In this document: piece by piece, positions 2,971 to 42,405 of the stretch | Numbering within the stretch: the stretch's first letter is position 1 | Layout: every line of letters begins with the position of its first letter | Notes under the pieces: model-generated | Databases searched by the model: none | Told to the model about the DNA's origin: nothing | Seen by the model: the letters and a program-made list of their open reading frames with translations, nothing else | Translations under genes and position numbers: made by a program | Source: Candidatus Magasanikiibacteriota bacterium | GTDB lineage: Bacteria > Patescibacteriota > Patescibacteriia > Magasanikbacterales > UBA922 | DNA: 56,288 nt | Reading direction: 5' to 3' | Assembly (NCBI GenBank): GCA_041675185.1 | Contig: JBAYUH010000003.1 | Coordinates: 1 to 56,288, forward strand

Positions 2971-5900
2971 ATGTCTGAAACAAAAAGAAATAATATAGAG
3001 ATGTTTATTCCAGCGATAGAAAAAGAAAATTTGTTGGAATCCTATGATAATTTTTCTGAAAAAGTTAAACAATTATTAGTCAAAAGTGAAAAAGTAACAA
3101 AATTTTGTTCTGCAGTTTTGGATTTATTACATAGTACACCAGATGATTTGAATGAAAAATTAAAAAATAAGACTGAACTTGTAGAAGATTTGAAAAAAAT
3201 AACTTTTGAATTGAATACTATTTTTTTAGTTTTGGCAGGTAAAGAAGAGAAGAAAATTAATTTTAGTGTGGTTGTTGATAGATTAAATTATTTTGAAAAT
3301 AAAGTTGATTCTATAATGGGTGTAGTTCAAAATCCAGATCAAGAATATATTTCTTTTGTGGAAGATGAAAACAAAAATTATGTTCATGATGATTTTGATA
3401 ATGATAATTGGATGGGGGGGAAGCAAGAGCAAAAACCTACAATTCAAGAAGAAAATGATGTAAATGATAATGTCAGTAAACAAGTTGAACAAGAAAATGA
3501 AGAAGAGACTGAAATTGAAGAAAAAAGTGATTTTGTTGAAATCATAAAAAATGAAAATGATAATGAACAAGAAGAACCAGAAAAAGATATACACAAAGAA
3601 ACTCCAAAAAAATTAGGTTTTTTTAAAAAATTATTTAGTAAAGAAGGTAGACAAGAAATCAAAAAAGATGTAAAAAGTTTTGGAAAAGGATTGTTGAAAG
3701 CTTTACCAAATATGGCTTATAAGACAGCTACCTCTGTTTTTGGGGTAAAATTAGTTACTGATTCTGTTGGTTTGATTGTAGATAAAGTTACCAAAGGAAA
3801 AAACGGTTGGGGAGATTATGCTAAAATGTCCAAAAATAAATATGAACGTAAAGAAATTGAACAGACTTTTCGAGAAGCTTTTGAAGAAATATTAGTCAAA
3901 AATACCAAAGAAACAAAATCAGAAACTGAAACAACTGAAGCCAAAAGACCAAAAGAAATACTAGAAAAAATAGCAAAATTAGATGCTAAGATTGATTCTT
4001 CTCAGGCTTCAAATGAAGATAAAGTAAAATTAAAAGAAAAATTACATGAAATATTAGAACAAGATAATTTTTCCAAAAAAGAAGTTTATGAAGGTGTCAA
4101 AGAAAAAATAGCTGAAATCATCAAGACTTATACAGATAACAAACTATCTTTGATTACTGTCTTAAAAGATGCTTTGAATACAGCTGGTGTTGCTACTGGT
4201 CTTTTTGCTTTGCGTGGAGTGGCTTATGCTGGGACATCTATGGCCGAAAGGATAAGATCCAATAGATCAGAAAATAAAAAGAAAGAATTGGAAGGTAAAG
4301 AAAATGAAAAAGAAAGTACTATGAAAGATTTGTTTCTCAATTCTACAATAGAAACTTTACGTGGTTTAGGTTTTCAAGGTATCAAAAAAGATAGAACAAC
4401 ATTACAAAAAGGTGTTGATTTTGCCAAATCAGTAGGCACTATTCTTCGTGGTTTAGGTATTTACGGTGTTGCTTTTGGAGATACAGATATCGCTGGAGCT
4501 TTTCATAGATTAAGTAGTAATTTGGAAGAACATGGTTTGGCTAGTACTGTTGGACGTAATTTTGTAGATAATATAGAAAGAGTTTTTCATATTTCTCATG
4601 GTGATGAATTTAGGAAAACTTTAGCAGAACAACAAAAAGAAGTAGGTATGTTTGCTCAAAATATGGGTTTGACTGCAGCGACTTCTGTACATGAACAATT
4701 ACATGTTGGACAGAATATTCCTATTGTGGAACCTCGTAATAATATTGCAGAAAATATAGAAGTAAATCATGAGCCACAAATTTTTAGTCTGACAGTTACC
4801 AAAGGTGGTAGTGCTTGGGGAACTTTAGATAAGACTTTGGATAGTGACAATACTCCACAAGAATTTAAAAATATGTTTGTAGGTGACAAACATGTTGATT
4901 TTTCACAGTGGCGTGAAAAACAACTTCTTGATATGGGTTATCAAAAAGTAAACGGCCATTGGGGTTCACCATTTACTATTCATGCTGGAGCTGAAATGAA
5001 AGTATACAAAGGTGAAGATGGAGATTGGCATGCTAGATTTGATAAAGAACTCAAAGCTGTACATGCTGATACACATAGAGAATATCGTACAATCAATGTT
5101 CACAAAACTTTGCATTTTCAAAATGAAAATAAACATGATATTGCTGATACTAACAAAAATGAAATTGCAAACACCTTGAAAAAAATAGCAAATACCAAAG
5201 ATGTGAATTTTGATGAAAAGACTGGTGAGATTAGTTTGGTTGAGCATCATAATACTTCTCCAAATTTGGAGGTCCATACTGACCATTCACATATTTTGTC
5301 AACTGATAATACAGATCATCATGTAAAAATAGAATCTGGTACTAATTTTGAAACTAGTATTATACCAGCTAAACCAAGTTTTTTTGATGAGAGTCAAGTA
5401 ATTCATAATCAAACACATAATGTAGATCATGCAAATAACATTGAACATAATACATTATCTAACGGTCAAGCCAAAAAAGTAGAGACTACGAATATAACAT
5501 CAGAATTGAAATCTATGCAATCTGGTGTAAAAGATACAAAATCTGGTTTGATTGACAATGTGAGTACACATAAAGTGGGTGAAATAACTGCCAAAAAATT
5601 TAATACTAAAATAGAAAATATAGGATATGGTTTTGACGATAGTCCAGCTTCTGAATATGATGAACGCGGTATTTCAAAAGTAATGTATGATGTTGTCAAA
5701 GAGCGTATTATTTCTTCTCCTGATACTTTGTCAGAAGAAGCTAAGAATTTGATTGATGATAATCTTATGGATCCTGTAGAAAAGACAAGAGAATTGTCAG
5801 CTATGTTTGTGAACGAAGGTACTTTAACAGATTTGAGTCTAGAAGAGAAATTATTTTTGGGTGGAGATGATGTTTTTAATAATTCTCATGAATTTACAAG

Positions 5901-6126
5901 TGTTGCAGTATATGATGGAGATGGTAAACTTACTTCCACTGCTTATTTACCTATTGGCCATGGTGGTTCTACAGCCAATCATTGTGTTGGTTTGAAAATG
6001 GCAGGTTCTGGTGAATATAGATTTGTCTCTAGCGAAGATTCTATTTTTGTCAAAGGTATGGACAAAAATGGCGATGCTATTTTGAATGAAATAAAGAAAA
6101 GTAATATTGAAAGTAACGTTTTATAA
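2971..6126 (+). CDS. large (1051 aa) hypothetical protein with coiled-coil/acidic N-terminal third, a central hydrophobic segment and a His/Asn-rich region
   Basis: Uninterrupted 3.1-kb ORF in AT-rich sequence. Acidic tract EQENEEETEIEE. Hydrophobic segment NTAGVATGLFALRGVAYAG. His-rich tract HTDHSHILSTDNTDHH. No catalytic motif recognised. Confidence 0.75.
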   Translation: MSETKRNNIEMFIPAIEKENLLESYDNFSEKVKQLLVKSEKVTKFCSAVLDLLHSTPDDLNEKLKNKTELVEDLKKITFELNTIFLVLAGKEEKKINFSVVVDRLNYFENKVDSIMGVVQNPDQEYISFVEDENKNYVHDDFDNDNWMGGKQEQKPTIQEENDVNDNVSKQVEQENEEETEIEEKSDFVEIIKNENDNEQEEPEKDIHKETPKKLGFFKKLFSKEGRQEIKKDVKSFGKGLLKALPNMAYKTATSVFGVKLVTDSVGLIVDKVTKGKNGWGDYAKMSKNKYERKEIEQTFREAFEEILVKNTKETKSETETTEAKRPKEILEKIAKLDAKIDSSQASNEDKVKLKEKLHEILEQDNFSKKEVYEGVKEKIAEIIKTYTDNKLSLITVLKDALNTAGVATGLFALRGVAYAGTSMAERIRSNRSENKKKELEGKENEKESTMKDLFLNSTIETLRGLGFQGIKKDRTTLQKGVDFAKSVGTILRGLGIYGVAFGDTDIAGAFHRLSSNLEEHGLASTVGRNFVDNIERVFHISHGDEFRKTLAEQQKEVGMFAQNMGLTAATSVHEQLHVGQNIPIVEPRNNIAENIEVNHEPQIFSLTVTKGGSAWGTLDKTLDSDNTPQEFKNMFVGDKHVDFSQWREKQLLDMGYQKVNGHWGSPFTIHAGAEMKVYKGEDGDWHARFDKELKAVHADTHREYRTINVHKTLHFQNENKHDIADTNKNEIANTLKKIANTKDVNFDEKTGEISLVEHHNTSPNLEVHTDHSHILSTDNTDHHVKIESGTNFETSIIPAKPSFFDESQVIHNQTHNVDHANNIEHNTLSNGQAKKVETTNITSELKSMQSGVKDTKSGLIDNVSTHKVGEITAKKFNTKIENIGYGFDDSPASEYDERGISKVMYDVVKERIISSPDTLSEEAKNLIDDNLMDPVEKTRELSAMFVNEGTLTDLSLEEKLFLGGDDVFNNSHEFTSVAVYDGDGKLTSTAYLPIGHGGSTANHCVGLKMAGSGEYRFVSSEDSIFVKGMDKNGDAILNEIKKSNIESNVL

Positions 6127-6148
6127 CTTTTTTATTGCTATTTAATTG

Positions 6149-6180
6149 AAAACAACCTAAGGAATGAGGTTGTTTTTGTT
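6149..6180 (+). terminator. rho-independent terminator after the 1051-aa gene
   Basis: aaaacaacct (6149-6158) pairs perfectly with aggttgtttt (6167-6176). The loop is 8 nt and a T-run follows. Confidence 0.7.
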
Positions 6181-6266: not shown

Positions 6267-6295
6267 TTGACAAAATAGTCAAAATATGTTATATT
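6267..6295 (+). promoter_or_regulatory. sigma70-type promoter TTGACA-17 nt-TATATT
   Basis: ttgaca at 6267-6272, an exact 17-nt spacer, and tatatt at 6290-6295. It sits about 350 nt upstream of the ATG at 6644. Confidence 0.5.
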
Positions 6296-6301
6296 ATCCC
6301 G

Positions 6302-6643
6302 TTCTTTACTAAAGATTAATATATGGTTGTTTTGTGGGTTGAGATAGGGGATGAGAGATAGCTCTTGTTACTATCTCAGCTAACAAGCTGAAACTATTCT
6401 AGACTATGGCATATCTATGCTATAGACAGATAGATTCTTTACAATTTACCAGTGTGGCAAACACTAAAAATAAGCGATGTAGAGTGGGTTTCCCTACACG
6501 GTCAAGACTTAGTTATAATAAATATAGTTAGGTGTTGACCGTGTAGGAACCCCGCTGTGGGGTTTGAGACGACTGTCCGTCCTTCGGACGGCGATCATTC
6601 CTCACACGGGTGTTCGTGTTCTAAACTTTGGAGGTGTATTGTT
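6302..6643 (+). promoter_or_regulatory. long structured 5' leader (or independent ncRNA) upstream of the first island gene
   Basis: Overlapping alternative hairpins: gagatag/ctatctc (6355-6361/6371-6377) and cttgtta/taacaag (6364-6370/6381-6387). A 13-bp perfect stem at 6493-6505/6535-6547. GC hairpins at 6548-6564 and 6577-6591. The SD GGAGG lies at 6630-6634. Confidence 0.45.
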
Positions 6644-7267
6644 ATGAAAACCAGTATCAACAGTAATGTCATTATTCCTCAACAAGAAATCAAGTTGCCG
6701 ATGGCTTTGGTCATCGGCAATGACGACACCACAACGACGGCGCGTACCACCGTCAAAAATCATCAACGTGGCTGGTTCTTTGGTGTCCTTTGGACACTGG
6801 GAACACTCGTGGTTCTCACGATCATCGCTGCCCTCCTTTGGGGAGCATTGAGACCGCAGCCGGTTATCGTCGACTACTCGGGCGCTCTCGGGCGCATCGA
6901 GAGTAAGATCGAGGACGGCAGGATTGAGATTTCGACGGCGGCCAACTCCTCTGTAGAGGCGGCATTATTCTCTAAGAAGAATAATGACATTTTGATTCCT
7001 GTTGCCCATCGCGTAAATCGCGACGGCAAGATTCTTGACAGGGCCCTTGGCGTCACTTATGACGCGAATGGAGAAATTTCTTCCGTTCAGACGTTGGACG
7101 AGGTTCTGATGGCGGCCAACCGCGCGGCGACCGCCGCCGAGAAGCAACCGACCATCATCGTACGGCGCGTCGAAGCGGTCGACATGACCGAGACGAACTC
7201 GAGGCTCTCGGCCATTGAGAAGGCGTTGGCTCAGCCAACGACACCCACCCTCGAGCGGGTGGAGTAG
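6644..7267 (+). CDS. bitopic membrane protein, unknown function (island gene 1)
   Basis: ATG at 6644 lies 9 nt after GGAGG. The GTG-extended version from 6557 in the track would run through the leader hairpins. Single TM (WFFGVLWTLGTLVVLTIIAALLWGAL). GC-rich codon usage. Confidence 0.7.
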   Translation: MKTSINSNVIIPQQEIKLPMALVIGNDDTTTTARTTVKNHQRGWFFGVLWTLGTLVVLTIIAALLWGALRPQPVIVDYSGALGRIESKIEDGRIEISTAANSSVEAALFSKKNNDILIPVAHRVNRDGKILDRALGVTYDANGEISSVQTLDEVLMAANRAATAAEKQPTIIVRRVEAVDMTETNSRLSAIEKALAQPTTPTLERVE

Positions 7268-7484
7268 GTAGTAAGAGTGCCACACTGGTAAACCTGGAGG
7301 TCGTAGAAGGTCGAAGAAGCTTAATTGCTTTTTTGACTGGACACGACCTCTAGGAATCCAGTACATTACACTGATTACATAGATTGTAAGAGATTATATG
7401 GAATTAGACAAATATTAAAATTAGCTAGATAACAAATATTTCGTGTCATAAGACTTATGACGTGAGATATGTGCTATCCAGCAC

Positions 7485-7706
7485 AAAATGTTCATTACAA
7501 TTTACTAATTTTTTGAGACTAAATATAGACAGAAGAGTATTTTTCTTTTGGTTTTGGGAAAATCTAGTGTGGTAAGGGAAAGAGTAATAAAGGTTTTTAT
7601 AATTCTTTCCCTTATCGCACTTAGCCGCCCCGCTCGGGGCAAATGACCCGCGTGGCGGGACGGTAAGGTTTTTTCAACTTCAGATCAAGAGAGAGGAGGT
7701 GTATAT
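7485..7706 (+). promoter_or_regulatory. structured 5' leader of island gene 2, paralogous to 6431-6643
   Basis: Shares the following with leader 1: ttacaatttac, agtgtggYaa, a long stem with an AT-rich loop (18 bp, 7566-7583/7604-7621), the ccccgctNgggg hairpin (7627-7640), a second GC hairpin (7647-7659), and GGAGGTGTAT before the ATG. Confidence 0.5.
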
Positions 7707-8462
7707 ATGATGAGCGCGATTTCGCGCTTTGTCATGACGCTGGGTCTGTGCGTTATGGCTCTCGTCGCGATTAGCGGCGAGGCGAAAGCAGACAGTTGGG
7801 TTGAGACCTATCGGACCGTGTGTCCGACAGGGTCAAAGACCCTCAATGTAACTTGTACTCGCGAAGGCGAGGAAGTTATATTGCGATTTGGCTGTGGGGG
7901 TCAGATTGCAACTTACACCTACACTTGCCAACACCCCAAGTTGGCAACAACATCGTTGCTTCCTAAGATCACCGAGGACAACTGGTTCGATTACCAGCTC
8001 GGCCTTCACACCAGTGGCGTTTTCGCCACCGGAGAGCTTCCACAGATGTTTTACATCGGTGGTGAGTTTTCCGCTCAGCTCAAACTGAGTGGGAAGTGGT
8101 GGATTTCTGGGTCACTCGGCTTGGGCTATGCCCGAGTTGATGGTGATAACATTTCTCTCACAGAAAGCTTCGGACTTCAGTACCGTATCAATACGGACTG
8201 GAATCTTGGGCTCGTCGCGCGCCACTACGTGGTGCTTGATGGTGAGGGTGATGTGCTCCAGGTGATCCTGCCCACTGTGGAGATTGTGTACAATGTTTCC
8301 AAAGGTCTGCAAGTCGTCTTGAACGGCGGTGCAGGCTGGGGACATTTCCGGGTGAGCGAGCGTATTTCAGCTGAGTCCTCTGTGGCTCCTTCTGAGTATA
8401 CAACGATCACTCGCGACGATCTCGTCGGGACGTTGGGACTGAACCTGAGGGCTAAGTTCTAA
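7707..8462 (+). CDS. secreted protein: Cys-rich N-domain plus 8-stranded outer-membrane-type beta-barrel (OmpX/OmpW/OMP_b-brl-like) (island gene 2)
   Basis: Signal peptide MMSAISRFVMTLGLCVMALVAISGEAKA. Eight amphipathic beta-strand-like segments, including FDYQLGLHT, WWISGSLGLGYARV, WNLGLVARHYVV and LVGTLGLNLRAKF. The terminal residue is Phe. Confidence 0.7.
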   Translation: MMSAISRFVMTLGLCVMALVAISGEAKADSWVETYRTVCPTGSKTLNVTCTREGEEVILRFGCGGQIATYTYTCQHPKLATTSLLPKITEDNWFDYQLGLHTSGVFATGELPQMFYIGGEFSAQLKLSGKWWISGSLGLGYARVDGDNISLTESFGLQYRINTDWNLGLVARHYVVLDGEGDVLQVILPTVEIVYNVSKGLQVVLNGGAGWGHFRVSERISAESSVAPSEYTTITRDDLVGTLGLNLRAKF

Positions 8463-8582
8463 TCAACGGTGAGCGAGGTTGTAGTCAGATACCTCGTCAA
8501 AAAAATCTGGCACAGTTCAAATTTTAGAGTTTCTGTCTATTTTTTGCAAAAGGTGGCGCTCCAGCCTTAAAATGGAGCTTGG

Positions 8583-10238
8583 ATGAAAATGAAGAATGGT
8601 ATGTTCAGTTTCGTGGTCATGGCGTTTTTCGCTATGGCTTTCTCGACCATCAGTGCTTGCGCTGACGGTCAGGGTATCAACACGCCGGCGACGTCTGTCG
8701 CTGGTCTCAACGCGGACGGGACTGGTCCCGCAGACAACTGCGAGGCAGTCTACAATCCGCCTAGTGTGAGGTTGGGAAAGAGTTGTGTTGTCGTAGCTGA
8801 CTGTAACAGTGTTGCACCGTTGTTGAAGTCAGGGGCTTCTGCTCCAGTGTTCTGTGTTACGCAGAACGAGGTAGATGACTTTGGCTGGTCACAGGTTCTT
8901 GTGGGGCAGTGCGTTGCACAGCTCGACACGGACGGTGACGCGGCTGGTGACGAGTGTGACGACGATGACGATGGTGACCTCATCAAGGACGCCGTCGACA
9001 ATTGCCCGCTGGTTACTAACCATGATCAGCTCAACACCGACCACGATGGACTTGGCGACGCCTGTGATCCCGACGACGACAACGACGGGATCCTCGATGG
9101 TGTTGACAACTGTCCGCTGGTGGAGAATGCCAATCAGCTCGACACGAACACTGATGGGGTTGGCGATGCGTGCGAGGATGACTCGGATGGCGACGGTATT
9201 CTGAATAATACCGATAACTGTCCGTTTGTGGCGAATGTTGATCAACTCAATTCCGATGATGATCTGATGGGCGACGCCTGTGATCCCGACGACGACAACG
9301 ACGGGATCCTCGACGCCGCTGACAATTGTCCGCTGGTGGCGAATGCCAATCAGCTCGACACTGACGGCGACAGTTTCGGTGATGTCTGCGATCCAGACAT
9401 CGATGGCGACACAGTACTCAACGGTGTCGACAACTGCCCGCTTGTTGCCAACCATGGTCAGCTCGACACTGACGGCGACAGTTTCGGTGATGTCTGCGAT
9501 CCAGACATCGATGGCGACACAGTACTCAACGGTGTCGACAACTGCCCGAACGTTGCTAATTTTGATCAATCAGATCTTGACAACGACAGTTTCGGTGATG
9601 TCTGCGATCCTGACTGCGACGGCGACGGCACCGTTGCGCCATGCAACGCCGACTCGGATGGCGACGGTTTCATTCCTCCTGCTGATTGTATGGAGGGTGA
9701 GGCGTCGGTTCATCCGGGTGCGACTGAGCTCTGCAACGGTGTTGACGACGACTGCGATGGTGTAACCGACGATGGCTGTCCGGCTCCCGCCTGCGTTACT
9801 GCCACCGAATGTGATGATGGTATCGCAACGAACACTGACACTTGCGTCAGCGGGGTGTGTGTACATACTCCGTTGCCGCCGGCTGGCACGTGTTTGGTGA
9901 ATGCTGATTGTCTAAGTACCGAAGCGTGTATTGCTGGGATTTGCCGACTCAAAGCAGCTCCTGGTCAATGTTCGCCTTTCGCCGTCACGGTGAAAGGGAT
10001 GACGACACCGTCGGTCAAAAAGGCATATCTTGAATGGTATACCACCTCGGCCAATCCCGCACCCACAAGGAACGGGGTAGTCGAAGATGGAACGTATCAG
10101 TCATTTGCTGGCGAATGCTCAGTTATCGCGTTTGATTTCGCGGTGGGTGAGTGTGGCTGTCATACTGCCTTTGGGGATTCTCCGTGTAAGGAGCTTCCTG
10201 ATTCACCTGGCCTCGTCGGATGCCGGCATAATCAGTAG
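8583..10238 (+). CDS. lipoprotein with six thrombospondin type 3 (calcium-binding DxDxDG...DNCP) repeats and a Cys-rich C-terminal region with a CNGVDDDCDG motif (island gene 3)
   Basis: Signal peptide with lipobox ISAC (Cys26). Six 36-aa units contain DNCPxVxNxxQxDxDxDxxGDxCDxDxDxDG. ELCNGVDDDCDGVTDDGC follows the repeats. Confidence 0.8.
   Translation: MKMKNGMFSFVVMAFFAMAFSTISACADGQGINTPATSVAGLNADGTGPADNCEAVYNPPSVRLGKSCVVVADCNSVAPLLKSGASAPVFCVTQNEVDDFGWSQVLVGQCVAQLDTDGDAAGDECDDDDDGDLIKDAVDNCPLVTNHDQLNTDHDGLGDACDPDDDNDGILDGVDNCPLVENANQLDTNTDGVGDACEDDSDGDGILNNTDNCPFVANVDQLNSDDDLMGDACDPDDDNDGILDAADNCPLVANANQLDTDGDSFGDVCDPDIDGDTVLNGVDNCPLVANHGQLDTDGDSFGDVCDPDIDGDTVLNGVDNCPNVANFDQSDLDNDSFGDVCDPDCDGDGTVAPCNADSDGDGFIPPADCMEGEASVHPGATELCNGVDDDCDGVTDDGCPAPACVTATECDDGIATNTDTCVSGVCVHTPLPPAGTCLVNADCLSTEACIAGICRLKAAPGQCSPFAVTVKGMTTPSVKKAYLEWYTTSANPAPTRNGVVEDGTYQSFAGECSVIAFDFAVGECGCHTAFGDSPCKELPDSPGLVGCRHNQ
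9351..9548 (+). repeat. perfect 90-bp tandem duplication (period 108 bp) inside the TSP3-repeat gene
   Basis: 9351-9440 and 9459-9548 are identical (cagctcgacactgacggcgacagtttcggtgatgtctgcgatccagacatcgatggcgacacagtactcaacggtgtcgacaactgcccg). A second shared block, ggcgacgcctgtgatcccgacgacgacaacgacgggatcctcga, occurs near 9053 and 9270. Confidence 0.9.
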
Positions 10239-10477
10239 TAGACATCGCAGTCTCATAAATTAGTAAAAACTGACCCTTGAAATAGGGTCCACCTGTTCAA
10301 AGATTCCAAAAACGTATTACAGTTACGTCTAGGAGGAGAGCAAGAGGTCGTGTGGACCGCTTTAAACAAAACACAACTAAGAGGGGGATGGGATTTCAGA
10401 CTGTAACTGAAATCCCTACCATATTACGCTTTTATAAATTTTATGAAGGTGTTGAGGGTAAAAATATAAATAATGAA

Positions 10478-10508
10478 ACAGTAACTTGCAATGAGTTGCT
10501 GTTTTTTT
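10478..10508 (+). terminator. rho-independent terminator closing the island transcript
   Basis: acagtaact (10478-10486) pairs with agttgctgt (10494-10502), including one G-U pair. Seven T residues follow. A second 8-bp hairpin lies at 10509-10527. Confidence 0.65.
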
Positions 10509-19724: not shown

Positions 19725-19796
19725 GGCCCGTTCGTCTAGTGGCTAGGACGCTAGGTTCTCATCCTAGTAACAGGAGTTCGATTCTCCTACGGGCTA
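19725..19796 (+). tRNA. tRNA-Glu (anticodon CTC)
   Basis: Cloverleaf folded by hand. Acceptor ggcccgt/acgggct. D-arm ttcgtctagtggctaggacg is typical of tRNA-Glu. Anticodon stem ctagg/cctag with loop ttCTCat. T-arm ggagttcgattctcc. No encoded CCA. Confidence 0.9.
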
Positions 19797-19897
19797 CAGT
19801 AGAAAATTACAATTTAAAATAAACAAATTCCAAATAAATTATAGTAAACAACAGTTTTAATTTGTAATTTGTAAATTGTTATTTGTATATTTCAAAT

Positions 19898-19971
19898 GTC
19901 AGGGTAGCTCAGCTGGTGAGAGCGTAGGATTCATAACCCTAAGGTCGGGAGTTCGAATCTCCCCCTTGACA
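19898..19971 (+). tRNA. tRNA with CAT anticodon (elongator Met, or Ile2 if lysidine-modified)
   Basis: Acceptor gtcaggg/ccttgac. D-arm tagctcagctggtgagagc. Anticodon loop ttCATaa. T-arm gggagttcgaatctccc. G1-C72 pairs and the three G-C anticodon-stem pairs are absent, which argues against an initiator. Confidence 0.85.
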
Positions 19972-19977
19972 CACACA

Positions 19978-37438: not shown

Positions 37439-39574
37439 TTATTCTTCTTCTTGTAAAATATATTCATAAACCCAAACTCTACCATTGTCTAGCTCCCACC
37501 AATTGTCAGCATCTACTTTGGCATCATCACGAATCTGAGCAGCTGGACTCCAATAATCAGTGTGGATGAAATAAGCTTTTCTGACTCCAGCAAATTTCAT
37601 GGCTTCTTCCATTGGTTGTCTCTGGGCTTTGACATAAGCCATTTGTCTGAAATATTGATAAAGTGGACCGCCAGTTGGAATAGAATAAAAATATTGCAAA
37701 CCTTGTGAAGTTGGTAAATAACCATCGAAACCAAATTCTGTTAAGGCTGCTGTAGCTACTGCTTGATTGGTGAGAACTATATAATCTTTTTTATTATTAT
37801 TTCTATCAACAATAAATTTTACAGCTATTAAATCAGCTTTTCTCAAATTTTGTCCAGTATATAGTGAAATATTGTCACGAGTCGGGTAGGTAAAAAACCA
37901 GGAGAGTAGAAGTGATAAAGCTAAAAAAATAGATACAAGAATTTGCCAGCTTATTTTGTTTTTTAGTTTTATAAATATTTCTCTAATAGCAATAATAAAA
38001 AACGGTAGAAATAAAATCAAACTTAAATCTAATAATCTAGTACCATATAATTTTTGGTCATAAGAAATTACATCTTTGAATTTTATAGAAGTGATAATCA
38101 AGAAAGACGATGTAGTGAGTGCCAAAAAAGTACTGATGAAAAAGTAAGTGATATTTTGTTTGTATTTTTTTAGAGCTAGGAAAATACCAAAGATAATGAT
38201 TATTATTATTAGGGGTTTCAAAATATCGCGATAATAATACAAAAGTTTTAATAATTTTGGACCACGTTCAATGAAGATATATTGTGGTCTAGCAAAAATA
38301 TTAAAAAAAACTTTAGCATTTTGAAAAGTATTTTGCCAAATTAAAGATCCTTTGTTGAATATAGAATTTAAGTATAGAGCAAAAGGAACAGTAAATGTGA
38401 GAATAAGAATGTACAGCGGATAAAATATTTTTTTGAAATTAGCATATATTTTTTTATAGATAATAGAAGCCAAATAAATTACAAATATTGGTAGACCGAT
38501 GAGTGGGTGTATCGTAGTAGTTAGTATATTGAGTAAAACACCAAAAATATTGGTTTGTATATCACTATGTTTATTTTCATACCAGATCCAAGAGGTTGTA
38601 ATGAGAGAAATAAGTAACGCCAAATTATTTGGTGTGGTAAATATAAAAAAGTTGAGCGGTATCAAAGAAATTAGAAGTAATGCTGGGTATATTTTATTTT
38701 TAAAATTATTTTTTGTGAGGGCAAAATAAAAACAAAGTGGAATAGCGACAGAAGCTAATATTGGGACTATACTTCTGTCCAGCCAAGAGATGTTTAATTT
38801 AGTAATAAAATTTGTAGAGACAACCCACATATATTGTCCGATATAATAAGGTTGTTTTGGAGCAATGAACAGATGTTCTCTTATCCATTTTTCAGTAGCT
38901 TCGTGAACGTGTGGATCAAAACCATAACCATATTTGAAAACAAAAAAAGCTACGTTCAAAATAATAGCTGTGTGGAGTATGATAAGTAATAGGTTGGTTT
39001 TTTGGTTTTTTGATCTTTGTAAAAAAAATAATAAAAGAGCTGAAACTAGAAAGAAAAGTATAAAAATTTTATTACTAAAAAGTGTCCAAGGTGAAATGAT
39101 AGTCTCGTCATAACGATGACTTATAAGAATTGTCAGTATAGTGATTTGTCCAATAAAAATTATGATAGCTAAAATATTTTTTTTTAGATAGTCTGATATT
39201 TGTTTTGTAGTTATTTGTTTTTTTTTGAAAATAATAAAATCTTCTATAGTATTTTTTCTACACAGGTATGAAATTGTAATAGAAGTAAATATGAAGGTAA
39301 AAGAGATAGTAGCCTGGTCTATTTGGTAAAACCAGTAGATAATAGACAATAAAGAAGTGGTCACCGCAATAAGACCTATGGTTCCAAAAAATAGCTTCCA
39401 AAATGAGTTTTCCTGTTTGATAAAACAAATACCAAAAGAATAGCCAAAAAAGGCTATATATAAAACATAAGCCAAAGTTCCTAAAATAGGATTTGTTGTG
39501 TACCATGTTGCTAAGAGTAAAAGGGTTGTAATAAGGGTTGCAAGCGTGGTATACTTTTTGAATAGTGTTGTCAT
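37439..39574 (-). CDS. large polytopic membrane protein with C-terminal soluble domain (GT-C-like architecture; paralog of 40225-42405)
   Basis: 711 aa. More than 12 hydrophobic helices, then a soluble tail of about 150 aa. Its stop codon directly abuts the stop of the convergent GT4 gene (taatta at 37436-37441). Confidence 0.7.
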   Translation of the reverse strand: MTTLFKKYTTLATLITTLLLLATWYTTNPILGTLAYVLYIAFFGYSFGICFIKQENSFWKLFFGTIGLIAVTTSLLSIIYWFYQIDQATISFTFIFTSITISYLCRKNTIEDFIIFKKKQITTKQISDYLKKNILAIIIFIGQITILTILISHRYDETIISPWTLFSNKIFILFFLVSALLLFFLQRSKNQKTNLLLIILHTAIILNVAFFVFKYGYGFDPHVHEATEKWIREHLFIAPKQPYYIGQYMWVVSTNFITKLNISWLDRSIVPILASVAIPLCFYFALTKNNFKNKIYPALLLISLIPLNFFIFTTPNNLALLISLITTSWIWYENKHSDIQTNIFGVLLNILTTTIHPLIGLPIFVIYLASIIYKKIYANFKKIFYPLYILILTFTVPFALYLNSIFNKGSLIWQNTFQNAKVFFNIFARPQYIFIERGPKLLKLLYYYRDILKPLIIIIIIFGIFLALKKYKQNITYFFISTFLALTTSSFLIITSIKFKDVISYDQKLYGTRLLDLSLILFLPFFIIAIREIFIKLKNKISWQILVSIFLALSLLLSWFFTYPTRDNISLYTGQNLRKADLIAVKFIVDRNNNKKDYIVLTNQAVATAALTEFGFDGYLPTSQGLQYFYSIPTGGPLYQYFRQMAYVKAQRQPMEEAMKFAGVRKAYFIHTDYWSPAAQIRDDAKVDADNWWELDNGRVWVYEYILQEEE

Positions 39575-39604: not shown

Positions 39605-40228
39605 ATGTCTTTTATCAAGGATTTCAAAGATAAGAATTTTGATTTGTTTGAATATCTACCAGCTACTGAAGTGCATCCACACGATCATTTTTTGGCTGTG
39701 ACAATTTTGCGTCTTTTGCCAAAGAACATTACTCCCAACAAAATTAGTTTATTTCGTATTTTTGCTACCCCTTTTGTTTTTTTGTTGATTTTTTTTGGGT
39801 ATTACAATGTTGGTGTTATCTGTTTTGTACTAGTAGCCTTCACTGATGCTATGGATGGATCACTTGCTAGAACACAAAATAAAATAACTAAATTCGGTAT
39901 GCTTACAGATCCTTTGGCTGACAAGCTCCTGATTGGCTCTATGGTACTACTTCTTGTATTTAAATATTTGGATTTTTGGTTGGGGATTGTGGTATTGGTT
40001 ATAGAAATTATTTTTATTATTGCGGCTTTTGTTTATCGTGTGAAGTTCAAGACTGTTCGTATGGCCAATCTGTGGGGGAAGATAAAAATGTTTTTGCAAG
40101 TATTGGCAATTTGTAGTGTGCTTATAGCTTTGGTTTTTGAAAATCAGACTTTTCTCAATATAGCCAATGTGATTTTGGGATTATCAGTAGGCTTTGCTTT
40201 AGTTAGTTTATTTCGGCATGGTATATGA
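39605..40228 (+). CDS. CDP-alcohol phosphatidyltransferase family protein
   Basis: DAMDGSLARTQNKITKFGMLTDPLADK matches the motif D-x2-DG-x2-AR-x8-G-x3-D-x3-D. Confidence 0.85.
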   Translation: MSFIKDFKDKNFDLFEYLPATEVHPHDHFLAVTILRLLPKNITPNKISLFRIFATPFVFLLIFFGYYNVGVICFVLVAFTDAMDGSLARTQNKITKFGMLTDPLADKLLIGSMVLLLVFKYLDFWLGIVVLVIEIIFIIAAFVYRVKFKTVRMANLWGKIKMFLQVLAICSVLIALVFENQTFLNIANVILGLSVGFALVSLFRHGI

Positions 40229-42405
40229 GTATGACTTTTTTGAAGAATAAAAATTTTTTGTTTACGATTTTATCTTTAATTTTGATTGCTATTCCTTCTC
40301 CTATCAGTAAGTTGTTAGGATTTTTTGGTTTTTTATTTTTCACTTCACAAATTTGGAAAAGTTTTTTTTCTTCTCTATTTGCTGAAAAATTTTCTAGTTT
40401 GATATATTTTTTGTTAGGTTTTTTTACTGTTTTTAGTTTGCTTGGTTTGGTATCTAGTATATTTGTGGTTTATTATACTTTGAATTCTACTCTTTTAGTT
40501 TGTTCTTTTGTTATTACTGATTTTTTGACTTTGGTTTTTTGTTACAAAAATTTGGAAAATAAATCATATCCCAAAAAAGAAAATTTTTTTCAAGAGAATA
40601 ATTATGTAAAAATTTTACTAGTTGTCTTTATCCTGTTATTTTCTTTAGGTATTTTTATTTTGTCACAGCACACTAGTGTGGAGGTGTTATTTAGTCCTTG
40701 GCAAACTATTCCCTTTGCTTATTTATTGATTTTTTTTGTTTTGAGCTTGGTTGCCGTGAGTTTACTTTATTTTTTACAGCACAAAGAAATAAGTTTATTT
40801 ATTTTTATTATTTTGGCTTTTTTTGTGCATGCTTACCTACCTATGTCTCATGTTTTGCCGTGGGGAGGGGATGTCTGGAGACATATGGCAGTAGAACAAA
40901 AGATTATGGATGGAGGTCTGGAATTGCCAGTTCTTTTTGGCAAAGAAGTATTATCTCGTAATATTTTTGGTTTAGCTATACCAGAAACATTTTTGATATC
41001 TACCAAATATTCTTATGGGCATTTGTGGGCAACAAGTATTCTCTTGTCTGATAGTCTGCATGTAGATTTGCTTCAAATAAACAAATGGTTAGTCACTATT
41101 TTGTGGTCGGTGTTTGTTCCTATTTTTTTGTATTTACTTGGTGTGGAGTTGTTTGATTCAAAAAAAAAATCTTTGTGGCTAGTTTTTTGTAGTATTTTTA
41201 TTTTTTCTTTTCAAGCTTTGGGGGCTTTTACTTTGCCTGTGAGTTTTGATTTTATTTTATTTTTGTTTTTATTGTTTTTATTTTTTTCTTATGTAAAATC
41301 TCAAAATAATAATTTGAAAAAAATGTTATTTTTGTTTTTACCATTACTTTTATTTCAGTATACTTTATTTTTTTTATTATTTATTTTTATTATTGTTTTT
41401 TCTTTTATTTTAAATAAAATAAAGAGTTTTGGTTCAAAAATTATTTTGGCTTTTTCTGCTATATTTTTTATTCCGATTTTTGAATTAATTACCAATTTGT
41501 CTGTACTAAATAATTTGCCAAGTATCTTTTCAAATGCTAAACAGACTGTAGGGTATTTGTCTGGAATTACTTATGCTCTAGCTATCCGAAGTGAGGATAT
41601 TTTGACTGGTAATATTTTTTTTAATCATACGCCTTTGATTGCTTTTGTTCCTAATATTTTTAATATTTTTAGATGGCACATACCTTTGGTTATGTTTGGT
41701 GTTTGGTGTTTATTTTTTATTGGTATTTTTTATATTCTTCTAAAAGAAAAAAGAAAAGAATGGCAAATTGTTACTTTGTTTTCTTTTTTGGTAGCTGGTG
41801 GTTATATTGTTGGTTGGATATTTTTTTCTGGTGATCATCTGTTTATACGTAGACTTGATCCTGTTTTGGCTTTGGTTATTTTGTTTGGTTCTTTTTATAC
41901 TATTTATAATACAAGAATTTTCAAGAGAATTTTAGACAAAAAAATAATTAGTTTTTCCTTAGTCACTTTAATTATTTTGTTTGGTACTACTGCTTATTCT
42001 TCTGGGCCAGATATGCAAGTGGTTTCTGTAAATGAGTACAAAGCTAATCAATATATTTTTAGTCTAATTAAAGATGATCAACATTATTGTGTGATTAGTA
42101 ATAGTTGGACTTTGCTTACTCTGGAATATTTTTCAAATAAAAAAATTGTGGGAGGCGGTTTTCCAATAGATAGACAGTTTGCCCAACCTGAATTAACTAA
42201 TATTTATCAATCTTTGTTAAACACTAGTTTTGAATTATCAATGTTGGACAAAGCTTTTGGTATAACTGGAAGTAATAGATGTATTTTGGCTATACCAAAA
42301 GAGTCTGTTACTTCAGAACAGAAAAAAGTTTTGGATGCTAAGCTGTCTGACTACGATTTAGGAGATTTGTCTATGTATGTTTGGGTAGTTGAAAAAAAGT
42401 CTTGA
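40225..42405 (+). CDS. large polytopic membrane protein with C-terminal soluble domain (GT-C-like architecture)
   Basis: 726 aa with many TM helices and a soluble C-terminal domain. Overlaps the upstream gene by 4 nt (ATGA). Confidence 0.7.
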   Translation: MSMTFLKNKNFLFTILSLILIAIPSPISKLLGFFGFLFFTSQIWKSFFSSLFAEKFSSLIYFLLGFFTVFSLLGLVSSIFVVYYTLNSTLLVCSFVITDFLTLVFCYKNLENKSYPKKENFFQENNYVKILLVVFILLFSLGIFILSQHTSVEVLFSPWQTIPFAYLLIFFVLSLVAVSLLYFLQHKEISLFIFIILAFFVHAYLPMSHVLPWGGDVWRHMAVEQKIMDGGLELPVLFGKEVLSRNIFGLAIPETFLISTKYSYGHLWATSILLSDSLHVDLLQINKWLVTILWSVFVPIFLYLLGVELFDSKKKSLWLVFCSIFIFSFQALGAFTLPVSFDFILFLFLLFLFFSYVKSQNNNLKKMLFLFLPLLLFQYTLFFLLFIFIIVFSFILNKIKSFGSKIILAFSAIFFIPIFELITNLSVLNNLPSIFSNAKQTVGYLSGITYALAIRSEDILTGNIFFNHTPLIAFVPNIFNIFRWHIPLVMFGVWCLFFIGIFYILLKEKRKEWQIVTLFSFLVAGGYIVGWIFFSGDHLFIRRLDPVLALVILFGSFYTIYNTRIFKRILDKKIISFSLVTLIILFGTTAYSSGPDMQVVSVNEYKANQYIFSLIKDDQHYCVISNSWTLLTLEYFSNKKIVGGGFPIDRQFAQPELTNIYQSLLNTSFELSMLDKAFGITGSNRCILAIPKESVTSEQKKVLDAKLSDYDLGDLSMYVWVVEKKS

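Follow-up and report, generated by a model that had tools for sequence, protein, structure and literature searches.

The stretch of DNA considered here, hereafter the window, comprises 56,288 nt of the forward strand of contig JBAYUH010000003.1 from a Candidatus Magasanikiibacteriota bacterium (assembly GCA_041675185.1). On its + strand, within the approximate borders 6400..10400, composition profiles delimit a GC-rich island of three genes, with 45-63% GC in 200-nt segments and about 30% outside. The middle gene (7707..8462, +), which is the main subject of this analysis, encodes a protein with a signal peptide, a small Cys-containing domain and a predicted C-terminal β-barrel of the type found in outer-membrane proteins (OMPs). 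It is preceded by a gene for a stalk protein with one transmembrane (TM) helix, and followed by a gene for a protein with calcium-binding TSP3 repeats. A preliminary description of the barrel gene overlooked this context, namely the GC-rich segment, the TM coiled-coil partner and the TSP3/Cys-rich partner. The DnaB protein of the window is 88% and 74% identical to those of two Candidatus Magasanikbacteria metagenome-assembled genomes (MAGs), followed by Uhrbacteria, and the window is therefore assigned, on sequence grounds, to the chromosome of a Candidatus Magasanikbacteria-type bacterium of the Candidate Phyla Radiation (CPR), or Patescibacteria.

The open reading frame (ORF) of the barrel gene starts with an ATG directly downstream of a GGAGGTG motif and encodes 251 amino acids. 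The first 28 residues (7707..7790, +) can be read as a Sec signal peptide, with the n-region MMSAISR, the hydrophobic core FVMTLGLCVMALVAI and the c-region SGEAKA/DS (the slash marks the cleavage site). A helix is modelled over residues 4-23, the site EAKA/D is conserved in homologs, and the AKA motif is unchanged in all four close homologs, all of which bears out the earlier proposal of a cleavable signal peptide ending in AKA. A lipoprotein was also considered and rejected, as the LGLC stretch within the signal peptide is a non-canonical lipobox and is not conserved (it is absent in the homolog P0004). Residues 29-78 (7791..7940, +) form in the model a β-domain of four strands (31-39, 42-50, 56-63 and 66-73), with a predicted local distance difference test (pLDDT) score of about 82-91 in AlphaFold2. 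The Cys-rich N-terminal domain described previously does exist, but its mature size is ~50 residues and not ~70, and it holds four cysteines and not five, because one of the five cysteines of the protein (C15) lies within the signal peptide. The remaining ones (C39, C50, C63 and C74) show no variation among the close homologs, and in the full set of 21 family members the conservation of C39 and C50 still reaches at least 90%. According to this conservation and to the model, a small disulfide-type domain of four strands is strongly predicted. It is joined to the rest of the protein by a disordered linker (residues 79-90; 7941-7976, +) with pLDDT values below 50.

The remainder of the protein (residues 91-251; 7977..8462, +, including the stop codon) is strongly predicted to be a transmembrane-type β-barrel of eight strands, of the kind represented by the transmembrane domain of OmpA (OmpA-TM), NspA, Ail and OmpW. 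This assignment is based on the AlphaFold2 model, Foldseek comparisons, the amphipathic faces of the strands and the presence of invariant residues. The model was obtained with an alignment of 21 family sequences and exhibits a mean pLDDT of 88.8 overall and of 91-98 over residues 91-251; it replaced an earlier run with four sequences, whose pLDDT was 53 and whose fold matches were of the same kind. Eight long antiparallel strands are observed in it (94-107, 114-128, 131-143, 147-160, 165-177, 182-196, 201-221 and 230-250), each of 13-21 residues, and all the loops of the barrel are short (2-8 residues). Foldseek comparison with the PDB yielded 53 matches at E<=1e-3, and all 53 are outer-membrane β-barrels, with OmpA, NspA, Ail, OpcA, OmpW and de novo 8-stranded transmembrane β-barrels (TMBs) at the top; the matches to OmpA, NspA, Ail and OmpW have E values of 1.6e-5 to 7e-4 and a probability of 1.0. 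The OMP-type barrel proposed in the preliminary description, which had recommended AlphaFold as a check, is thus recovered as a high-confidence prediction.

A hydrophobic face lies opposite a polar or small one in seven of the eight strands. The earlier claim of eight amphipathic segments ending in LGLNLRAKF consequently holds for the number of strands and for the C-terminus, while strand 7 lacks a clear amphipathic contrast. Trp, Tyr and Phe residues cap the hydrophobic faces at both ends in the manner of an aromatic girdle, and the polar faces are rich in Gly, Ser, Thr and charged residues. This capping and the Gly/Ser/Thr-rich polar faces, together with the fold matches, point to a hydrophobic belt that would face lipids. 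Read backwards from the C-terminus, positions 1, 3, 5, 7 and 9 are occupied by F, A, L, L and L. All sequences of the 21-member alignment have F251, followed in two of them by one further residue, and the C-terminal aromatic signature is thus conserved.

By its fold the protein resembles a small OMP, whereas by its sequence it belongs to no described family. Pfam gave no match at threshold, including the OMP_b-brl, OmpW and OmpA_membrane models suggested for comparison in the preliminary description, and Ail_Lom as well; only families of outer-membrane barrels, such as Phenol_MetA_deg, appeared below the cut-offs. The Autotransporter model (PF03797) covered just 53 residues and scored 19.4 bits (cut-off 26), and OMP_b-brl reached 13.8 bits against 28.7, with only four of the 21 members touching the model at E values of at least 0.036. 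No threshold matches for the barrel protein were obtained with NCBIfam, PHROGs or PADLOC, and nothing significant appeared when the PDB was searched by sequence, either with the single sequence or with the profile. The comparison of the family profile with E. coli OmpX, OmpA-TM and OmpW using hhalign gave a probability below 1% in each case, and the sole stretch of OmpA picked was the last barrel strand, in which GMLSLGVSYRF was aligned with GTLGLNLRAKF.

The family itself is small. Three relatives were found in a database of 5.8 billion clusters, and when 1.84 billion representatives were searched exhaustively with a profile, 20 members were obtained at E<=1e-3; a search of an annotated database with the family profile recovered only six, on account of its word filter, and the profile of a distant subfamily (A4), run against GTDB genomes and JGI metagenomes, gave no matches. 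The members share a signal peptide, a small and usually Cys-containing N-terminal domain and a barrel with an aromatic end, and three residues, R172, G210 and F251, do not vary across the family alignment. No literature was found on this barrel family, nor on OMP-type barrels in CPR bacteria.

The other two island genes are encoded on the same strand. Gene 1 (6644..7267, +) encodes 207 residues from the ATG at 6644, although the mechanically delimited ORF starts at a GTG at 6557. The protein has a short cytoplasmic segment at its N-terminus, followed by a single TM helix (WFFGVLWTLGTLVVLTIIAALLWGAL) and an extracellular stalk, and in Pfam it shows only sub-threshold matches of the coiled-coil/LPP type. 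Orthologs with 32-57% identity, whose stalk is coiled-coil-like, are present in five related loci (L004, L007, L009, L012 and L180), while the equivalents in L003, L011, L094 and L179 are only positional and hold coiled-coil or collagen-like stalks. In L179, gene 1 (309 aa, with a collagen-like G-x-y stretch, a TM helix and a coiled coil) exists as two tandem copies (6627-7556 and 8282-9211), and the protein sequences of both copies are identical.

Gene 3 (8583..10238, +) encodes 551 residues, with a signal peptide, a Cys-containing N-terminal domain, seven TSP3 repeats and a C-terminal Cys-rich region. The repeats, of a calcium-binding type, are matched by Pfam TSP_3 in seven stretches (E = 5.4e-58), and at the DNA level they appear as a 108-nt periodicity across 8919-9643. 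The NCBIfam model throspo3_MtsC (NF047638) matches the protein with E = 2e-67 and 227.9 bits, over the repeats only and against an equivalog cut-off of 350 bits; the ortholog from L094 gives E = 1.9e-69, both proteins scoring 228-235 bits. Orthologs of gene 3 come after the barrel gene in all loci. From its domains, the product appears to be a secreted protein with TSP3 or Cys-rich repeats, of the type used by myxobacteria for cell-cell cohesion. Two 60-nt segments of this gene (9351-9410 and 9459-9518) are identical, which suggests a recent expansion or conversion of repeats. In L179, the third island gene carries Cys-rich repeats of the CDDGxxCTxDxCDP type in place of the TSP3 repeats.

The slot of the island is shared by L003, L004-L008 (obtained from groundwater samples), L011, L094, L179 and L180, and the synteny is the same in nine independent contexts. 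In all the relatives with readable flanks the order is a DUF5663 gene or its positional equivalent, an ORF of 66-69 residues, a gene for a giant protein, the GC-rich island, and then Wzy_C, radical SAM (rSAM) and GT4 genes. In each of them the barrel gene is the middle gene of the cassette, which forms part of a surface-glycan locus in CPR bacteria of the Magasanikbacteria type. This synteny holds in assemblies from NCBI, ENA and JGI, including contigs of 41, 115, 275 and 470 kb. The island extends over 7500-12800 in L003, 8000-12300 in L004, 9000-12368 in L011, 3300-8200 in L094, 6500-13100 in L179 and 8900-12650 in L180.

The island diverges along with its flanks, and faster than them. In comparison with L004 and L007, identity is 62% for the barrel, 50-57% for gene 1 and 44-48% for the TSP3 protein, whereas it is 75% for Wzz, 72% for Wzy, 90% for the rSAM protein and 68-81% for GT4. 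The same is observed at greater distances, with 31% for the barrel against 63% for Wzy in L094, and 24% for the barrel against 54% for Wzz in L011. Overall, barrel identity ranges from 24 to 64% where Wzz, Wzy and rSAM proteins show 54-90%. The pairwise ratio of nonsynonymous to synonymous substitution rates (dN/dS) of the barrel gene is 0.21-0.57, with dS values of about 0.4-2.2, which indicates, at the level of sequence comparison, a gene inherited vertically under purifying selection. Since the slot is conserved, the island and its flanks have co-diverged and dN/dS is below 0.6, the gene is neither cargo nor the product of recent horizontal transfer. The possibility raised previously that it might be non-functional cargo is contradicted by these data, and also by the presence of a promoter-like box and a structured leader of its own.

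The composition of the island departs strongly from that of its surroundings. GC content at third codon positions (GC3) is 0.57-0.65 in the three island genes versus 0.16-0.26 in 13 other genes of the window, and codon usage is inverted, with fractions inside and outside the island of 0.74 versus 0.13 for GAG, 0.38 versus 0.02 for CTC, 0.32 versus 0.02 for CGC and 0.02 versus 0.28 for ATA. The islands of the relatives have GC3 values of 0.76-0.92, in genomes where GC3 is 0.20-0.48. The spacers within the island have 38-56% GC, much below the genes. Third positions have remained GC-rich despite the turnover of synonymous sites (dS of about 1 or more), and as candidate causes it can be proposed that they are upheld by selection on codons or mRNA or, at a surface locus that recombines, by biased gene conversion, rather than being the remnant of a recent transfer. 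The window also encodes tRNA-Glu(CUC) and tRNA-Met (19725-19972), and the former, which is specific for GAG, may be relevant to the translation of the island, given that GAG accounts for 13% of the Glu codons outside and 74% inside.

No integrase, mobility genes, tRNA-edge insertion or direct repeats were found at the island, nor long repeats flanking it or repeats at its borders, and there were no PHROG or PADLOC matches supporting mobility. Searches of IMG/VR, INPHARED and PLSDB yielded no viral, phage or plasmid relatives, and a phage or plasmid origin was rejected. Outside CPR, the TSP3 protein has its closest relatives mostly in Myxococcota, over the repeats only, and these repeats resemble those of Myxococcota and other GC-rich diderms. 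Among 78 non-CPR loci with a TSP3 gene, none has a gene of the barrel family within about 6 kb; no donor was identified, and the family searches revealed no barrel homolog outside CPR-type contexts.

Several public records of the island deserve mention. L001, L002, L009, L010, L012 and L095-L099 consist of the island alone, as stand-alone contigs. One of them, L012 (MNVH01000037.1, 4981 bp), which carries gene 1, the barrel gene and the TSP3 gene, was deposited in the MAG Candidatus Micrarchaeota archaeon CG1_02_55_22, where it has probably been mis-binned on account of its 54% GC. Another contig, L137 (JAZDGJ010000024.1), from a Woesearchaeota MAG, encodes a relative of the TSP3 protein with 52% identity over residues 1-401 and lacks the barrel gene. 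The island genes have also been called on the wrong strand in public annotations of L004 (8252-8995 and 10676-12202), L011 (11393-12367) and L094 (3309-4631 and 6172-7980). The minus-strand calls made by the pipeline in L004-L008, L011 and L094 have GC1 values (GC at first codon positions) of 0.8-0.94 and nonsense-like products rich in Arg, Val and Ala, and they were discarded as artefacts, since tblastn and GC3 place all island genes on the + strand.

Gene 1 and the barrel gene are each preceded by a leader of ~210 nt, and the two leaders are paralogous. Leader 1 (6439..6643, +), recognised from a repeat finder, alignment A3, a consensus fold and the positions of a box across loci, contains a TTACAAT box, an AT-rich hairpin with 25-nt arms (6493-6547), a CCCCG-N4-GGGG hairpin (6550-6562), a second GC hairpin and GGAGGTG. 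Leader 2 (7495..7706, +), supported by repeats, alignment and consensus fold, presents the TTACAAT box, a hairpin with 26-nt arms (7566-7621), CCCCGCTCGGGG (7628-7639), CCCGCGTGGCGGG followed by a T-run, and GGAGGTG. The GC hairpins exhibit compensatory differences between both paralogs, while CCCCG-N3/4-GGGG is invariant. The RNA fold of 7555-7712, in leader 2, has an energy of -69.6 kcal/mol (z = -8.0). In the window and in seven other loci, distant lineages included, the TTACAAT box precedes island genes by 196-297 nt, and equivalent leaders are found in L003, L004, L009, L012, L094, L179 and L180. Rfam returned only sub-threshold miRNA and snoRNA noise on the leaders. They are candidates for a cis-regulatory or mRNA-stabilising element. 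Long structured 5' leaders are known from the mRNAs of ompA and of surface-layer (S-layer) proteins, and by analogy such leaders, combined with a strong ribosome-binding site, would fit the stable mRNAs of abundant surface proteins. Upstream of leader 1 there is a sigma-70-like promoter by consensus match only (6267..6295, +; TTGACA-17-TATATT with TG, 11 of 12 consensus matches), itself preceded by a terminator-like hairpin of the giant gene (6147-6178, +). A pattern scan also revealed, at the 3' border of the island, a terminator-like hairpin that carries a T-run (10475..10505, +).

The island is preceded by an operon with the composition of the surrounding genome (2445..6126, +), formed by a 104-aa ORF (2445-2759), a 66-aa ORF (2765-2965) and the gene for a giant protein of 1051 residues (2971-6126). 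The same order precedes the island in L003, L004, L011, L179 and L180, where the first gene matches DUF5663 (PF18908); the 104-aa ORF of the window fails to reach this model and is only a positional equivalent. No family match was obtained for any of the three products of the window. The C-terminal half of the giant protein is 39% identical to its counterpart in L004, and in the relatives the giant has 1409-1862 residues. As it is always found upstream, this operon may be functionally linked to the island. No literature was found on DUF5663 or on MtsC. Elsewhere, the window encodes UvrA/C, DnaB, RecR, MraZ/MraW, MraY, a penicillin-binding protein, MurA, a ClpB-like protein and a type IV pilus ATPase, and its genes fall into dcw-cluster, peptidoglycan and DNA-repair categories, with many genes for glycan synthesis. 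In its glycan/lipid region, a gene for a CDP-alcohol phosphatidyltransferase is flanked by ORFs of 711 residues (37439-39574, -) and 726 residues (40225-42405, +), neither of which has a Pfam match at E<=1e-5.

The presence of such a barrel is surprising in view of what has been described for the envelope of these bacteria: a conserved barrel with a β-signal is found in a lineage presumed to have no outer membrane, within a vertically inherited island whose synonymous composition is kept far from that of its genome. C-terminal-aromatic transmembrane β-barrels count as a defining trait of outer membranes and of their assembly machines, namely the β-barrel assembly machinery (BAM), SAM and TOC. 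Ultrasmall CPR-type cells from groundwater, observed by cryogenic transmission electron microscopy (cryo-TEM), have a periodic surface layer and lack an outer membrane; the hosts to which they are attached possess two lipid layers, and a dense line marks the zone of contact (PMC7906910). Comparative genomics places CPR bacteria within a monoderm clade that lost porins (10.1101/2021.05.31.446380). The preliminary description of the genome as otherwise monoderm-looking agrees with both studies, once the window has been attributed to CPR by its DnaB.

According to these data, it can be proposed that the three island proteins form a module for cell-to-cell attachment, in which the barrel would act as the anchor in a lipid bilayer. 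This bilayer would most plausibly be the outer membrane of the host, because the group of the producer has been imaged without an outer membrane and yet attached to hosts with two membranes. The barrel would be inserted from outside, leaving both termini and the Cys-containing N-terminal domain in the gap between the cells, where these parts could bind the TSP3 protein and the stalk. Small 8-stranded barrels are able to insert spontaneously in vitro, and insertion might occur in this way, or it might be aided by the BAM of the host if this machinery reads the conserved terminal aromatic signature. Taken together, this explanation (a functional gene from a small family of proteins not described before, encoding a barrel in a vertically inherited cassette that serves as a host-attachment module with an anchor in the host outer membrane) is given a probability of roughly one half.

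The module can be compared with several known systems. The barrel protein shares with the small OMPs of diderms (OmpA-TM, NspA, Ail/OmpX and OmpW) the Sec signal peptide, the eight amphipathic, aromatic-capped strands and a C-terminus of the type x-Φ-x-F. It differs from them in that its additional domain is N-terminal, Cys-containing and β-rich, and not a C-terminal OmpA_C; in that all its loops are very short; in that its producer comes from a group with no outer membrane; and in that it has no sequence membership, with TM-scores of about 0.45-0.55. An autotransporter β-domain, in turn, has a barrel of 12 strands and a passenger, in contrast with the eight strands and the 50-aa N-terminal domain found here. 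The adhesin and fusogen TraA/TraB, which mediates outer-membrane exchange in Myxococcus xanthus, combines an outer-membrane β-barrel, calcium-binding TSP3 repeats and a Cys-rich stalk stiffened by disulfides (PMC12045341). The island holds the same inventory of modules at what would be a cell-cell interface, an analogy of parts and not of membership. In TraB, the barrel, the TSP3 repeats and an OmpA domain are joined in one protein, whereas here the barrel and the TSP3 repeats are encoded by separate genes, in a producer without an outer membrane of its own; no model for OmpA, a PA14-like variable domain or MYXO-CTERM matched the window proteins in Pfam and NCBIfam. Gene 3 also shows strong TSP3-repeat similarity to MtsC, a MYXO-CTERM thrombospondin-repeat protein involved in cell-cell cohesion, but its C-terminus (…GCRHNQ) has no MYXO-CTERM-like TM tail and its score is below the equivalog cut-off. 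An identity with TraB, MtsC or an autotransporter was rejected, as the defining features of these proteins are missing. Regarding classical horizontally acquired islands, the sharp compositional break and the atypical codon usage are shared, while the fixed position, the co-divergence with the genome and the persistence of GC3 through at least one synonymous substitution per site are not.

Other locations for the barrel have to be weighed. It could sit in the cytoplasmic membrane of the producer itself, inserted from the outer face after Sec export, or in another lipid-containing layer of the CPR cell, and tether there the Cys domain and its partners with no host membrane involved. This would be the simplest arrangement, a complex on the surface of the producer where gene 1 is anchored in any case, it would require no BAM if insertion is spontaneous, and the loops of 2-8 residues are those of minimal anchor barrels such as de novo TMBs. 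We consider it unlikely, since the invariant terminal aromatic residue is the classical signature for recognition and assembly at outer membranes, the ordinary anchor in the own membrane is a TM helix such as that of gene 1, and, to our knowledge, no β-barrel integral to a bacterial cytoplasmic membrane has been described. Alternatively, the lineage may not be a simple monoderm, and the barrel might be a native OMP of an outer lipid layer or remnant outer membrane served by a divergent or unrecognised assembly system. The vertical inheritance of the family, its canonical β-signal-like C-terminus and the surface-glycan neighbourhood (Wzz, Wzy_C/O-antigen-ligase-like proteins and many glycosyltransferases) would all suit a membrane of this kind, and CPR envelopes are poorly characterised (PMC8871954). 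This option is nevertheless improbable in view of the S-layer without an outer membrane seen by cryo-TEM (PMC7906910), of the position of CPR in a clade without porins (10.1101/2021.05.31.446380), and of the fact that an outer membrane needs many OMPs, whereas this gene is the sole one of the barrel type in 56 kb and its family has 20 representatives in 1.84 billion. Similarly improbable is a soluble or wall-associated 8-stranded barrel (for instance, one that binds a ligand) which would be OMP-like only in its predicted fold and would keep the hydrophobic face as its core. One-dimensional alternation cannot tell which face points outward, TM-scores to real OMPs are about 0.5 and there is no sequence homology to OMP families; but the 53 significant fold matches consist exclusively of membrane barrels, with no soluble one, the strands of 13-21 residues have girdle-like Trp/Tyr/Phe caps and polar faces similar to the lumen of OmpA and OmpX, and the invariant terminal Phe comes after a pattern of alternating hydrophobic residues.

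The origin of the island admits two further readings, both of very low probability. It could be recent foreign DNA from a GC-rich diderm such as a member of Myxococcota, with the barrel as a passenger, as might be thought from a GC3 of 0.6 versus 0.2, the inverted codon usage and the closest non-CPR TSP3-repeat relatives. The evidence largely refutes this view: the slot is the same everywhere and barrel identity falls from 64% to 24% with the divergence of the flanks; GC3 remains at 0.76-0.92 after dS of about 1 or more, with dN/dS below 0.6; the spacers have only 38-56% GC, without mobility genes or border repeats; and barrel homologs are found neither within about 6 kb of the 78 non-CPR TSP3 loci (0/78) nor anywhere outside CPR-type contexts. 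Still less credible is the idea that the GC-rich segment arose as a chimera during assembly, or from a contaminant fused to a CPR contig. Many assemblies present the island only as short stand-alone contigs, one of them binned in an archaeal MAG, but one or both junctions between AT-rich and GC-rich DNA are crossed, with the same gene order, in at least eight independent and concordant assemblies drawn from ENA, JGI and NCBI.

Several points weigh against the favoured explanation. The protein has no sequence-level membership in any OMP family, the TM-scores to 8-stranded OMPs are moderate (0.43-0.55, target-normalised, with root-mean-square deviations of 7-10 Å), and the closure of the barrel by pairing of β1 with β8 is deduced solely from the fold matches. 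No BAM, Lpt or Lpx genes are present within the window, which at 56 kb is too short to prove their absence from the genome. No established literature precedent was found for a bacterial barrel that enters the outer membrane of another bacterium from outside, and the GC-rich codon usage of the island is left unexplained by the model. A more far-reaching picture, to be taken as speculative and rather doubtful in its entirety, is that an episymbiotic CPR bacterium without an outer membrane plants its own OMP-type barrel in the outer membrane of a Gram-negative host as a protein harpoon, whose β-signal the BAM of the host may read, and that some force actively keeps the cassette GC-rich (GC3 up to 0.9 versus 0.2). 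A bolder version, for which there is no positive evidence, would have the cassette tuned for translation in a GC-rich host or with its resources.

The island bears on the debate over whether compositional islands originate by selection, biased gene conversion or horizontal transfer, as it constitutes a natural case in which synonymous sites have been kept remote from the equilibrium composition of the genome over a deep vertical descent. In practice, GC-rich islands of this type are costly, since they break assemblies, are mis-binned and yield gene calls on the wrong strand. A conserved barrel in a lineage without an outer membrane means either that barrels can be assembled without BAM, or that the BAM of another cell is borrowed, or that the envelope of the lineage has been misjudged. 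Host attachment by CPR/Patescibacteria is a key unanswered question that concerns a large share of bacterial diversity and, apart from pili, we know of hardly any molecular parts that take part in it. The locus described here offers a compact and conserved candidate for it, made up of three proteins: a stalk, a barrel and a calcium-binding adhesin.

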